NCBI GenBank assembly: GCA_964429275.1
Contig: CAYSBJ010000001.1
Location: 265,776-329,775 of the forward strand
Length of the DNA: 64,000 nucleotides
Direction of reading: 5' to 3'
DNA from: an uncultured Pseudomonadota bacterium
GTDB lineage: Bacteria > Babelota > Babeliae > Babelales > JAUPTZ01
Of this stretch, positions 10,713 through 51,182 are shown piece after piece. The translations under genes were made by a program, and so were the position numbers. The notes under the pieces are model-generated. The model did not search any database and had not been told where the DNA came from. It worked only from the letters and a program-made list of their open reading frames with translations. Positions within the stretch are counted from its first letter, which is position 1, and every line of letters begins with the position of its first letter.

Positions 10713-10790
10713 TGGCGTCCCCGAGGGGATTCGAACCCCTGTTACTAGAATGAAAATCTAGTGTCCTGGACCAGGCTAGACGACGGGGAC
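10713..10790 (-). tRNA. tRNA-Glu(TTC)
   Basis: Cloverleaf: acceptor GTCCCCG/CGGGGAC, anticodon arm ctaga-ttTTCat-tctag, GGTTCGAATC, encoded CCA. Confidence 0.97.
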
Positions 10791-10812
10791 GCATACATTT
10801 TTAGAACAAATA

Positions 10813-10888
10813 TGGTGAGCCGCGCAGGGATCGAACCTGCGACCCACAGCTTAAAAGGCTGTTGCTCTACCGACTGAGCTAGCGGCTC
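10813..10888 (-). tRNA. tRNA-Lys(TTT)
   Basis: Acceptor GAGCCGC/GCGGCTC, anticodon arm acagc-ctTTTaa-gctgt, GGTTCGATCC, encoded CCA. Confidence 0.97.
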
Positions 10889-25885: not shown

Positions 25886-25975
25886 GGAGAGATGGCTGAG
25901 TGGTTGAAAGCGCTCGTCTCGAAAGCGAGTATACCTTAACGGGTATCGTGGGTTCAAATCCCACTCTCTCCACCA
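25886..25975 (+). tRNA. tRNA-Ser(CGA)
   Basis: Acceptor GGAGAGA/TCTCTCC, anticodon arm ctcgt-ctCGAaa-gcgag, long variable arm, GGTTCAAATCC, encoded CCA; discriminator is A. Confidence 0.96.
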
Positions 25976-26155
25976 CCCTCCTTCGCCACACTGCCGGGCG
26001 TTAAGCCCGACAGGTGGTCTACGGCGTGGCGGGCCTTTTAAAGGCATGATACCGCCGTAGAACTAACCACCGGCAGTGTGCAGCGTAAGCGCTGGGCGCT
26101 AGAGCGATGCGAAGAGGTTGTCACGCCATAGTCCTTGACGAGGCGACAGCGGACT
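25976..26155 (+). repeat. Structured tRNA-3'-associated element, copy 1
   Basis: Multi-stem element homologous to 50319-50490 (shared tgtcacgccatagtcc, ctacggc/gccgtag, cagtgtg, gcgatgcga, ggcgac.gcggact). Confidence 0.8.
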
Positions 26156-26205
26156 AAAAACAAAATTAATTTACAGGCGAAACTCCTTTTCCACAAAGCT
26201 CCATC

Positions 26206-26766
26206 ATGCTTAATCTCAAACCCTCAGTAGCTCTCGTGTATTCTCTCGCTGCCGGCCTTACGCCGTTTGATGCTTTGGAAAAAGAGCATGTCGACGATGC
26301 GTTGGCGTGGATTGCTAGCGGGGCGCCCATTTTTAGAACGGCAAAGCCTGATGTACCACCAAAACACTTAGTTTCTTATTTTTTGCTTTTTGATGAGACA
26401 GCAAGGAAGATCCTGCTGGTTGACCATAAAAAAGCACAATCATGGCTGCCATCTGGGGGGCATGTTGAGCCAGATGAAGATCCCAAAGAGACGGTGCGTC
26501 GCGAGTGCGAAGAAGAATTGTTTGTTTCCGCTGAGTTTTGGCGAGAAGAGCCGTTATTTTTAACCTCCAGAGTTACCATTGGGCTTACGGCTGGGCATAC
26601 TGATGTTACTTTTTGGTATGTACTTAAGGGAGATTCGCAGAAAGAGTATGCTTTTGATGCTGAAGAATTCAACGCTATTCAATGGTTTGGATTTGATGAA
26701 GTTCCGTATGATAAGGCTGATCCGCATTTAGGTCGGTTTCTGGAAAAGCTGAAAGCCATTATATAG
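26206..26766 (+). CDS. NUDIX hydrolase
   Basis: Nudix box GGHVEPDEDPKETVRRECEEEL. Confidence 0.9.
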   Translation: MLNLKPSVALVYSLAAGLTPFDALEKEHVDDALAWIASGAPIFRTAKPDVPPKHLVSYFLLFDETARKILLVDHKKAQSWLPSGGHVEPDEDPKETVRRECEEELFVSAEFWREEPLFLTSRVTIGLTAGHTDVTFWYVLKGDSQKEYAFDAEEFNAIQWFGFDEVPYDKADPHLGRFLEKLKAII

Positions 26767-37493: not shown

Positions 37494-37568
37494 GCGGGAA
37501 TAGCTCAGTGGTAGAGCACTGCCTTGCCATGGCAGGGGTCGCGAGTTCGAATCTCGTTTCCCGCTCCA
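37494..37568 (+). tRNA. tRNA-Gly(GCC)
   Basis: Acceptor GCGGGAA/TTCCCGC, anticodon arm ctgcc-ttGCCat-ggcag, GTTCGAATC, U73 and encoded CCA. Confidence 0.97.
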
Positions 37569-37844
37569 TCCTTCGCTTTTGAGGCGCGGATGGTTCCACC
37601 GTTTCCTTTTATTTTTACTTAAAAAACCTTTGTTTGCGCATGTTTTCTAATTCTGTTAGAATCTAACGTAGCAGGTGGAAGACCATGTTTTCTTGCGGTC
37701 GTCACCTGCGACATGGCAAGCTAGTTGAGTTGCTGTTCGCCCGGTTCTGCGGATATTTTTTAATACCGGTAAATGAACACCTCAACACATGGGCGTTTCT
37801 CTAAGAAAACGACCCTCATTTATGATACATATGTAAGGCTATCA

Positions 37845-49760: not shown

Positions 49761-49848
49761 GTGTTTTACCTATATGCTGTTGTTTGCTATGAAAATGAGG
49801 GTATAGTATACTCGATTCTCTAAAAATTATGTTCTTTGATGTTTTTGT

Positions 49849-50318
49849 GGGGGCGTTTTTGGTTTCGACGTGTTACATACGGCTATGAACGCATGCCGAG
49901 TTTGGCTCCGGAACTCGTAAAAAAAAGGTGCAAATCAATAAATGCAGAATCTAACGGTTCTGTGAATACATCTTACAACTTGATGAATGCTTACAAGCCT
50001 GTGACCCTTGGTCACGTGTTTGCTGGCTTTAACGCTGCTGGCAGCTTTGCTGCTGTTGCTGCGTAGTCGTCAACTAGTTGATGCTATTCATCTTGTAAAT
50101 AGGGCCCCGTCTATCTGGCTCTCTTACTCGTATTACCCATGATAGAATCGTGTCACAAGGTTTTTTAGTTGTGTACTGACGCGATATACAAAACTAACCC
50201 GTCTTCGTGGCACTGTCTGCGATGCTTTGAAGATGTGGTAAAAATCGCAGTCCAGCATGGAGTTTGCTTGTAGTTACGTGTGATGCGGACATGGGTTCAA
50301 CTCCCATCGCCTCCACCA
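49849..50318 (+). ncRNA. ssrA: tmRNA (470 nt); tag ORF 49944-50066
   Basis: 5' GGGGGCG...GGTTTCGAC pairs with 3' CGCCTCC-ACCA with a G3-U pair; T-arm GGGTTCAACTCCC; ...ATAAAT-GCA resume site; the tag ends FAAVAA*. Confidence 0.93.
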
Positions 50319-50490
50319 CTCGCCTTCGCACACGCTGCGTGCGACAAAGCGCACGAGGTGTGACTACGGCATAGCGGGGCCTTCAAAGGCACCACAAGCC
50401 GTAGTATCACCGTCAGTGTGTAACGCAGCCCGCTAGGGCAAGTGCGATGCGAGTGTCACGCCATAGTCCCCGTAAGGGCGACGGCGGACT
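50319..50490 (+). repeat. Structured tRNA-3'-associated element, copy 2
   Basis: Homolog of 25976-26155 with the same helix order and compensatory changes. Confidence 0.8.
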
Positions 50491-50579
50491 GGCAGGCAAA
50501 ATTACCTCTAGGTTCTGACCCGCCGGGTCTTACTCTCTAGGCCTCTCTAGCCAAAAAACATCCTTTATTCGGGAATCTC

Positions 50580-51182
50580 ATGAAAAAAATCAAACTTTCT
50601 ACCATCCTTACTCTTTCCTTTTCTCTTCTTCTCCTTGTTGCATCTGCGAATCCTTTCGAAGGCATTTTACGGACTGCGCGTGAAGAACGGGCAGCGCTGA
50701 CTAGTCCAAGCACCTTTGCGCCTGGATTTAGCCTGGGAAGTTCATTTTCATATACAAAAAAACGCATAGGCCAAAGCGGAATTCCAATAGCCGCTTCAGT
50801 TGGCACCACCGTGGCTCTTTCGCTTCTTTTTGAGCGATTTGCTAAAACCGAGTCTCGCACTCGTGCCAAGAAAATGGCAGTGTTATCATACCTTTTAGCT
50901 GCGGTCTATGGATCTCAATTGCGTCAGCGTGGTGAGCAATACAATAATCTTTCACTAACTGACCCAATGCTTTTTAACCGCCTTCTGCTTGTTTTTGGCA
51001 GCAGTGTGTGTGGAACGTTTCTTTTGAACCTTGTTTTAGATTGGTATCGTGGCAGTAAGGGCTCTCAGGCAACGCTCAAACAAAATCTTACGTGGGCTCT
51101 GGAAATGGGTGCTTTGAACTCTTATGCCGTTGCGGCAGCCTACTTTCTTGATAAAGGCACTGTGCCAGTAACGCAATCGTAG
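50580..51182 (+). CDS. Hypothetical membrane protein
   Basis: 200 aa, signal peptide and about 4 hydrophobic segments. Confidence 0.65.
   Translation: MKKIKLSTILTLSFSLLLLVASANPFEGILRTAREERAALTSPSTFAPGFSLGSSFSYTKKRIGQSGIPIAASVGTTVALSLLFERFAKTESRTRAKKMAVLSYLLAAVYGSQLRQRGEQYNNLSLTDPMLFNRLLLVFGSSVCGTFLLNLVLDWYRGSKGSQATLKQNLTWALEMGALNSYAVAAAYFLDKGTVPVTQS

Follow-up and report, generated by a model that had tools for sequence, protein, structure and literature searches.

Two hairpin elements behind the tRNA-Ser and tmRNA genes of a Dependentiae genome are probable gene-less copies of a tRNA-anchored GIY-YIG nuclease cassette

Results

We analyzed a 64,000-nt stretch of DNA (the window) in which two homologous multi-stem elements follow a tRNA-Ser gene and the tmRNA gene. 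These elements are probably non-autonomous, gene-less copies of a selfish nuclease cassette that is anchored at tRNA ends. In its full form, the cassette has a tRNA or tmRNA 3' end as its anchor, runs in the orientation of the tRNA, and consists of a hairpin or multi-stem 5' arm that opens at the first base past the CCA (CCA+1), a second hairpin (HP2), and a nuclease gene. This gene lies 30-100 nt past HP2 and encodes a single-domain GIY-YIG protein of 80-100 amino acids (aa) that resembles UPF0213 proteins and SLX1. The window belongs to a 1.21-Mb Dependentiae assembly (G000; contigs C1, C2, and so on) of 8 contigs, with ~46% GC, 36 tRNA genes, and one tmRNA gene, which was compared with a 98%-complete congener (G003).

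Two elements open at the base after the CCA

The tRNA-Ser(CGA) gene, with its CCA encoded, occupies positions 25886..25975 of the + strand (ARAGORN; Rfam RF00005, 63.9 bits), and the element behind it, copy 1, extends from 25976 to 26155/7. The tmRNA gene lies at 49849..50318 on the same strand (ARAGORN; Rfam RF00023, 123 bits) and is followed by copy 2, from 50319 to 50490/2. A preliminary description of this DNA had claimed that the two elements are homologous and share the same helix order. Indeed, they align over their full length, directly from the CCA, with 71% identity over 5-180 (BLAST). The helices that it listed are all readable in the sequence, most of them within the minimum-free-energy folds, and the identical 16-nt block and the gcgatgcga block were found where it had placed them.

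Each copy is composed of a 5' multi-stem domain and a 3' hairpin module, HP2, both on the + strand. The 5' domain of copy 1 (25976..26117) was delimited by its fold and by pair counts and that of copy 2 (50319..50453) by its fold; R1, a covariance model built from seven long copies and searched against G000, matched 25976-26157 with 139.5 bits (E 2.7e-32) and 50319-50492 with 187.9 bits (E 2e-44). The outer helix of this domain, P1, opens in the first bases past the CCA in copy 1 and closes at 26108-26117, with the branch helices inside; in copy 2, it starts at CCA+1. The P1 strands of both copies are CCTTCGC with GCGAAG/GCGATG, and thus have the family form of a 5' strand N-CYTWCGC paired with a downstream GCGWARG-N'. 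The HP2 modules (26119..26155 and 50454..50490) were recognized by sequence, with the layout seen in compact copies from other phyla (alignment A4). Both consist of TG, an outer helix of 6-7 bp, a 3x3 internal loop (RWA with GAC or GAA), and a variable apical hairpin; in copy 1, the outer helix is GTC-A-CGCC / GGCG-GAC (here AGCGGAC) and the loop is ATA/GAC. The ATA/GAC loops of the window copies are those of Nitrospiraceae, Armatimonadota, and Verrucomicrobiota copies.

The tmRNA copy is not an assembly artefact, since contigs of two metagenome runs (X1, which may come from the source sample, and X2), out of three DNA runs whose contigs were compared, span it without differences. No element-free form of the tmRNA locus was seen in the contigs of these three runs, a result that is silent on mobility.

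Nine long copies, all at tRNA or tmRNA ends

As the preliminary description had proposed, the genome was scanned with a covariance model. R1 detected nine long copies in G000 (E 2e-45 to 6e-6), and all 9/9 begin 1-4 nt past the CCA of a tRNA or tmRNA gene, on the strand of that gene. The hosts are Arg-TCT, tmRNA, Arg-CCT, Leu-AAG, Leu-CAA, Ser-CGA, Phe, Leu-CAG, and Tyr. One copy, behind tRNA-Arg(TCT) on contig C2, carries a gene; the other eight, including both window copies, are gene-less. Identities among the long copies range from 52 to 90%, a directly observed spread of copy ages. Between the tmRNA copy and the gene-bearing tRNA-Arg(TCT) copy, the identity is 90%. The Ser copy shares 66-71% identity with five other long copies and 55% with the diverged Phe copy.

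Other tRNAs of G000 are followed by shorter relatives that have this 5' strand in common with the long copies. A strict start motif, which matches 0.45% of random genome positions, fits 14/37 G000 trailers, and about ten further trailers are, by eye, degenerate versions of it. In the short forms, a P3 hairpin is often followed by a T-run. Elements also occupy the spacers within tRNA clusters (Tyr-Gly-Thr and Lys-Leu). The G000 tRNAs that lack such a trailer end in canonical terminators. Of note, the tRNA-Lys/tRNA-Glu pair of the window (10713-10888, - strand) has a canonical stem-loop and T-run terminator and no element, so that both kinds of tRNA operon end occur in one window. A possible relic lies directly 3' of tRNA-Gly(GCC) (37494-37568), at 37569..37600 (+). 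It was noted in the trailer listing and the regular-expression count; it opens with the 5' strand motif of the family, T-CCTTCGC, and the remainder of the element is unrecognizable.

The weaker R1 matches comprise eight condensed copies, two antisense or inverted self-matches, and one unexplained match. The condensed copies (~57 nt) join a remnant of the 5' strand to HP2 and lie outside the window and off tRNAs, on C3 (164170-164237; 165766-165822), C1 (425254-425317; 48156-48214; 508712-508800), and C2 (38500-38557; 16426-16482; 178277-178345). They are located within arrays of the other repeat of G000, whose motifs they seem to split as insertions would (TCGCAA^TGAC, GACGAA^GCAATCC). Nested and inverted modules were observed as well: ~60-nt modules that read as inverted HP2 lie inside the copies of the tRNA-Leu(CAG) trailer (C3:201798-201859) and the tRNA-Thr(CGT) trailer (C3:141215-141302), and, at a Pontiellaceae locus (L165), one HP2 is nested within the apical loop of another.

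A small GIY-YIG nuclease gene accompanies the element

The preliminary description had also proposed looking for a co-occurring nuclease gene, and one was found. A search of G000 with the Pfam GIY-YIG family (PF01541) returned UvrC and three small genes, none of them in the window. One of the three is an intact open reading frame (ORF) of 81 aa (C2:59716-59474; E 2.3e-17) that opens 95 nt past the long copy behind tRNA-Arg(TCT). Its product is 41-53% identical to the proteins of element-following ORFs in Verrucomicrobiota, Nitrospirota, Chloroflexota, Desulfobacterota-type, and other metagenome-assembled genomes (MAGs). The nearest solved structures are those of UPF0213 proteins and of the SLX1 nuclease domain (PDB 7cq2, 4xlg, 1zg2, and 1ywl; E 2e-10 to 7e-7).

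The association of this nuclease gene with the element was observed both within the phylum and across phyla. The nuclease family is present in 185/261 Dependentiae genomes. Of the best 30 Dependentiae nuclease loci, 25 have a tRNA or tmRNA gene 83-580 nt ahead of them in the same orientation (four of these were read by eye). Across phyla, a nuclease ORF stands behind the element at 14/84 loci among the matches listed for the 24-nt core described below (strict start motif, 300-nt flanks). Among the nine long copies of G000, a UPF0213/SLX1-like gene lies downstream on the same strand in only one, which fits non-autonomous copies.

Unrelated ORFs, neither of which is a GIY-YIG gene by the PF01541 search, follow both window copies. 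The ORF behind copy 1 (26206..26766, +; 186 aa) starts 50 nt past the element; the one behind copy 2 (50580..51182, +; 200 aa) starts 89 nt past it and has a signal-peptide-like start. Both are co-oriented with the element, and a promoter and terminator scan detected no promoter-like or terminator-like site on the + strand between either copy and its next ORF.

The other two small GIY-YIG genes of G000 are located in arrays of a hairpin repeat tagged with CGTC, and their products are 33% identical to the tRNA-linked one. These two array-type genes are flanked by CGTCATTGCGAG repeats; the tRNA-linked gene instead has an HP2 tagged with TGTC upstream.

Folding and covariation of the long copies

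The minimum-free-energy folds of copies 1 and 2 reach -83.5 and -86.8 kcal/mol (z -4.2 and -4.9); 1/200 shuffles folded as well for copy 1 and 0/200 for copy 2. In the seven long copies of G000, the consensus structure, which came from the same rows that it was scored on, pairs 89.8% of cells vs 83.9% in shuffles (0/500 reach this value). The preliminary description had inferred covariation from two copies. This was upheld in the seven, where 12/51 pairs changed on both sides (1/500 shuffles), and again across phyla, as detailed below; slid controls of the seven-copy structure gave 33-45%.

The same description had suggested that the 3' module could form an H-type pseudoknot. On the seven long copies, the nested reading pairs 92.8% of cells and the pseudoknot reading 90.7%, values that are about equal and do not decide between the two. 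The cross-phylum alignment supports the nested hairpin: 7/7 pairs of the HP2 outer helix changed on both sides there, and the pseudoknot was not borne out.

A family that spans many phyla

The preliminary description had implied that the element is confined to this genome. This proved too narrow, as the family spans many phyla. A 24-nt core derived from Dependentiae trailers, CYTWCGCCAAGGCTWCRGYTGGCA, was detected in at least 121 stretches of a collection of species-representative genomes. Among these stretches, record names include Verrucomicrobiota, Kiritimatiellota, Planctomycetota, Nitrospirota, Acidobacteriota, Chloroflexota, Bacteroidota, Desulfobacterota-type, Proteobacteria, Patescibacteria, Omnitrophota, Armatimonadota, and others; two of the records are isolates and others include MAGs, of which single records may be mis-binned. 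Cultured carriers of the element include Geomesophilobacter sediminis Red875 and Pontiellaceae B1224. The following counts refer to the matches listed (84 cores in 80 loci). The core lies 1-3 nt past an ARAGORN tRNA in 31/84 cases, and other cores follow tmRNA ends (Rfam tmRNA at loci L109, L112, L114, and L127). CCA-N precedes the core in 43/53 matches that are not behind an ARAGORN tRNA, some of which are tmRNA ends cut by the flank; ~40% of the cores are not behind a tRNA or tmRNA. In other phyla, CCA-G-CC before the element can pair with an internal GGCTGG of the core, and the CCA may be part of the copied unit or its target. It should be noted that the core of some Bacteroidales/Rikenellaceae MAGs (L104, L122, L172, and L176) lies off tRNAs within short tandem repeats, such as heptamer runs, a context that differs from that in other phyla.

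In its compact form, the element consists of two hairpins. The HP1 helix measures up to 14 bp, starts from the base past the CCA, and carries a small GGCU-GGCA-AGCC hairpin as its cap; HP2 has the layout given above, with a purine-rich 3x3 internal loop. In the long form of the window, HP1 has grown into a multi-branch domain and HP2 is almost unchanged. The 24-nt core is absent from both window copies, whose sequences diverge past CCTTCGC.

A second covariance model, R2, was built from 12 compact copies from phyla other than Dependentiae. In the alignment of its 42 matches, which was fitted to the model and therefore favors the structure, 89.4% of cells are paired vs 77.7% in shuffles and 22/28 pairs changed on both sides; 0/500 shuffles reach any of these measures, and slid controls give 29-40%. 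P1 variants include the pairs GCCTTCGC/GCGAAGGC, GCTTTCGC/GCGAAAGC, and ACCTACGC/GCGTAGGT, so that even the first base past the CCA is paired. A separate test of P1 on 65 trailers, in which the 3' strand was placed by an HP2 regular expression, gave a score of 8/8 for 22 trailers and 7/8 for 7; the mean was 5.38, and 1000 shuffles averaged 5.09 with a maximum of 5.32, a noisy result, as the expression misplaced HP2 in many trailers. Placement, orientation, architecture, and helix covariation of the cassette are matters of direct observation.

Sense-strand rows of the cross-phylum alignment contain 45 G·U and 32 A·C combinations, which is no clear sign that the transcript strand alone folds. 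The folded hairpin is equally likely to be DNA or RNA: the strands show no clear asymmetry, as expected of a DNA palindrome.

Relatives within Dependentiae

In 40 genomes of the same order, R1 detected no full copy of the long form, only three weak partial matches. The congener G003 carries related short-form elements directly behind most of its tRNAs, and the same tRNAs differ in occupancy between the two genomes. Indeed, tRNA-Arg(TCT), Arg(CCT), Arg(TCG), and Leu(TAA) have an element in G000 and none in G003, and Ser(CGA), Leu(CAA), and Phe have a different element form in G003 than in G000. By their N-terminal sequences, the genes downstream of Ser-CGA and Leu-CAA are orthologous between the two.

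A pattern composed of the tRNA T-arm, the CCA, and the 5' strand motif was found in 154/261 Dependentiae genomes, with about 540 matches vs 2 for the reversed pattern used as a control. In Dependentiae forms, an A-rich spacer or extra hairpins are inserted into HP1. R2 is significant on short forms of G003 (2e-5 to 1e-3) and on one G000 trailer (1.2e-3). The tRNA-Tyr trailer of G003 is a bridging copy: it combines the cross-phylum core with an HP2 nearly identical to that of the window copies, and both models match it (R1, 5e-6; R2, 2e-3).

Discussion

Selfish copies or a functional trailer

The preliminary description had left two options, a co-transcribed trailer RNA (processing signal or ribozyme) and a non-autonomous mobile element directed to tRNA-like 3' ends. 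We favor the mobile element, given the fixed position of all nine long copies at CCA+1 to +4, the GIY-YIG gene behind one of them, and the proximity of 25/30 nuclease loci to a tRNA or tmRNA. A cycle of the following kind may be envisaged. Transcription that reads through from the tRNA promoter would drive the nuclease gene, as the window shows no promoter-like or terminator-like site between an element and the next ORF. The predicted nuclease might recognize either the hairpin arm or the vacant end of a tRNA gene, as single-stranded, extruded, or branched DNA, and nick it. Repair by copying from an occupied tRNA end could then carry the arm, alone or together with the gene, to further tRNA genes, with the conserved T-arm, acceptor, and CCA as presumed upstream homology. 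The start of the helix at exactly CCA+1 would be retained because the 3' maturation of the tRNA stays intact. A more far-reaching version seems unlikely to us. It would make the cassette a new class of autonomous mobile elements with an 80-aa GIY-YIG nuclease as its sole protein, which targets tRNA and tmRNA ends through a DNA hairpin and CCA(G)CC:GGCTGG pairing, copies itself via single-stranded intermediates, and has had its arm co-opted in Dependentiae to serve tRNA operons as their standard module for 3' processing/termination.

Several results weigh against selfish copies of a nuclease cassette. Under default filters, R2 did not match the window copies at E<=1; with the filters off, its best + strand match reached 5.5 bits (E 0.2 in 401 nt). 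The homology of the window copies to the cross-phylum family therefore rests on placement, P1, HP2, the nuclease gene at a sister copy, and the bridging copy; judged by these features, and given that the direct model test failed, the window copies appear to be diverged members of the family. The nuclease had no match at E<=1e-5 in plasmid and phage collections, so that no transfer vehicle came to light. No base-exact gain or loss event was delimited, as G000 and G003 are unalignable downstream of the His-Pro-Arg cluster, where only the tRNA cluster itself aligns. Moreover, the element persists throughout a phylum of 1-Mb genomes, and the covariation of its helices, P1 at CCA+1, the copies between tRNAs of one cluster, the classic terminators of element-free tRNAs, and the co-oriented downstream genes with no promoter-like or terminator-like site in between would also fit a function in the transcript.

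Such a function would belong to a co-transcribed tRNA trailer, an RNA from CCA+1 that directs the endonucleolytic release of the 3' end or serves as a terminator, an insulator, or a 5' stabilizer of the downstream mRNA. The nuclease gene would then be just a passenger or an evolutionary source, a view compatible with a selfish origin followed by domestication. The features that fit a function in the transcript speak for a trailer, as do the covariation of P1 down to the first base past the CCA, the T-run that often follows the P3 hairpin of short forms, the short distance (50-90 nt) to the next ORFs, and the presence of the motif in 154/261 genomes of a phylum with reduced genomes. However, G·U is not clearly favored over A·C (45 vs 32), the same tRNAs are occupied in one congener and empty in the other, ~40% of the listed cross-phylum cores and the eight condensed copies of G000 lie elsewhere, modules are inverted and nested, and the association with the nuclease gene is tight. 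We see only a limited chance that the trailer account is correct. It is very improbable that the tRNA 3' end is fused to a catalytic RNA such as a self-cleaving ribozyme, the second variant of the trailer option left by the preliminary description. Although the compact multi-helix fold sits exactly at the processing site and the 24-nt core is strongly conserved across phyla, no Rfam ribozyme family matched even at E<=10, the window copies lack this core, the minimal members are two plain hairpins, and inverted copies exist.

The 3' ends of tRNA and tmRNA genes are classical integration sites, and the elements could in principle be att-site scars of integrase-type islands or prophages. This explanation is hardly tenable, as the element begins past the CCA and does not replace the 3' part of the tRNA. 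We rejected an integrase-island scar on two further grounds: for 9/9 long copies, no repeat of at least 9 nt of the last 35 nt of the tRNA occurs within 1.5 kb downstream, and the two tyrosine-recombinase genes of G000 are not adjacent to any copy, the nearest being ~7.5 kb away. It is also improbable that the elements are ordinary members of a described repeat system, either Ssn with Ssn-related hairpin motifs or REP/RAYT-type palindromes, in an unusual location. For this speak the two further small GIY-YIG genes of G000, which lie in CGTC-tagged hairpin arrays as the main text of PMC11893778 describes for Ssn, as well as the short conserved tag (TGTC) before the HP2 hairpin and two Y1-transposase genes in G000. 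Against it, identity between the tRNA-linked nuclease and the array-type proteins of the same genome is only 33%, the solved structures nearest to this nuclease are those of UPF0213 proteins and of the SLX1 nuclease domain, and tRNA is mentioned 0 times in the Ssn main text (PMC11893778). An origin from RAYT or IS200 was rejected: the Y1 genes belong to two IS200-like copies with their own end hairpins (C2:268007-268366, - strand, and C1:444251-444604, + strand, the second with an in-frame TGA), and the HP1, HP2, and SRM motifs are all absent from the 500 nt around them. Matches to the element were likewise lacking in Rfam and in the full-text literature searched.

Relation to known systems

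Several known systems share features with the proposed cassette. The eukaryotic repair enzyme SLX1, which has a partner and a RING domain, cuts branched DNA. As SLX1/UPF0213 structure-specific nucleases are the best sequence matches of the cassette nuclease among solved structures, such an activity would, by analogy, suit a multi-stem or cruciform target. The Seg family of phage T4, with SegB in a tRNA gene cluster, likewise consists of selfish GIY-YIG genes among or behind tRNA genes, with a spread that is presumed to be nuclease-initiated copying. The Seg proteins exceed the cassette nuclease in size and contain a separate domain for DNA binding. Unlike the cassette, Seg genes are phage-borne and lack a hairpin arm, gene-less satellites, and fixation at CCA+1; the cassette nuclease has no match in the phage collection. 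REP/BIME-RAYT and IS200/IS605 with PATE are also hairpin elements with many non-autonomous copies per nuclease gene, which insert in a fixed orientation directly 3' of a short target, and the CCA-G-CC:GGCTGG pairing seen in other phyla recalls the guide pairing of IS608. Their enzymes have an HUH/Y1 fold, however, and not a GIY-YIG fold, and we know of no strand-transfer chemistry for GIY-YIG enzymes.

Ssn proteins are single-strand-specific GIY-YIG nucleases with NTS/SRM hairpin repeats (Chenal et al., Nat Commun 2025, PMC11893778). According to the main text of that paper, their criteria are membership of the nuclease in CDD family cd10448 and a CGTC-tagged hairpin repeat of 20-50 nt that flanks the nuclease gene. 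The cassette shares with the Ssn systems described there a very small single-domain GIY-YIG gene, an oriented hairpin repeat with a short conserved tag, gene-less repeat copies that outnumber the gene, and a wide spread across phyla (PMC11893778). G000 also holds an Ssn-type system in its typical form, with the gene in hairpin-repeat arrays. The tRNA-linked nuclease appears to represent a different branch, as judged by its 33% identity to the array-type genes and its UPF0213/SLX1 matches. Moreover, the cassette is anchored at the tRNA or tmRNA CCA end in the orientation of the tRNA and has a second, 5' arm, and the main text of PMC11893778 does not mention tRNA.

As to whether the element is new, as the preliminary description had thought possible, only tRNA and tmRNA passed the thresholds of Rfam 15, including its ribozymes, and the sub-threshold matches overlap the tRNA or are at chance level. 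No description of a tRNA/tmRNA-linked GIY-YIG cassette or of the core motif was found in the full-text literature, a body of text that leaves most subscription journals outside its coverage. The element may be tabulated, unnamed, among the multicopy sequences of Geobacter/Pelobacter genome papers (PMC2700814 and PMC3543383), because relatives of those organisms carry it (L161 and L163). The pairing of a mini GIY-YIG nuclease with hairpin repeats is thus known, and what is new is its tRNA/tmRNA-anchored, apparently undescribed cassette.

If the elements are indeed copies of such a cassette, some of the most conserved genes, those of tRNA and tmRNA, house a nuclease element that is tiny, widespread, and as yet undescribed, and the hairpin arms of this element account for a visible part of the DNA between genes in reduced genomes such as G000. 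The cassette would be a second, tRNA-anchored branch of the pairing of mini GIY-YIG nucleases with hairpin repeats and could provide new structure- or sequence-specific nucleases for work with single-stranded DNA. It would also explain the recurrent "conserved structured tRNA trailers" that resemble regulatory RNAs in genome scans and would raise the question of how insertion at exactly CCA+1 stays compatible with tRNA 3' maturation.

Additional observations on the assembly

The tag peptide that ARAGORN reports for the tmRNA looks unlikely. An open frame within the tmRNA (window 49836-50066) closes at 50066 with ...GSFAAVAA, a more typical ending for a tag, yet the frame is unusually long. A second tmRNA call by ARAGORN (C1:412058-412348) overlaps tRNA-Cys and is probably false, arising from structured sequence upstream of and around this gene. 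Finally, contigs C4-C7 of G000 (4-13 kb) have 60-70% GC vs 46% in the three large contigs and are likely bin contaminants.

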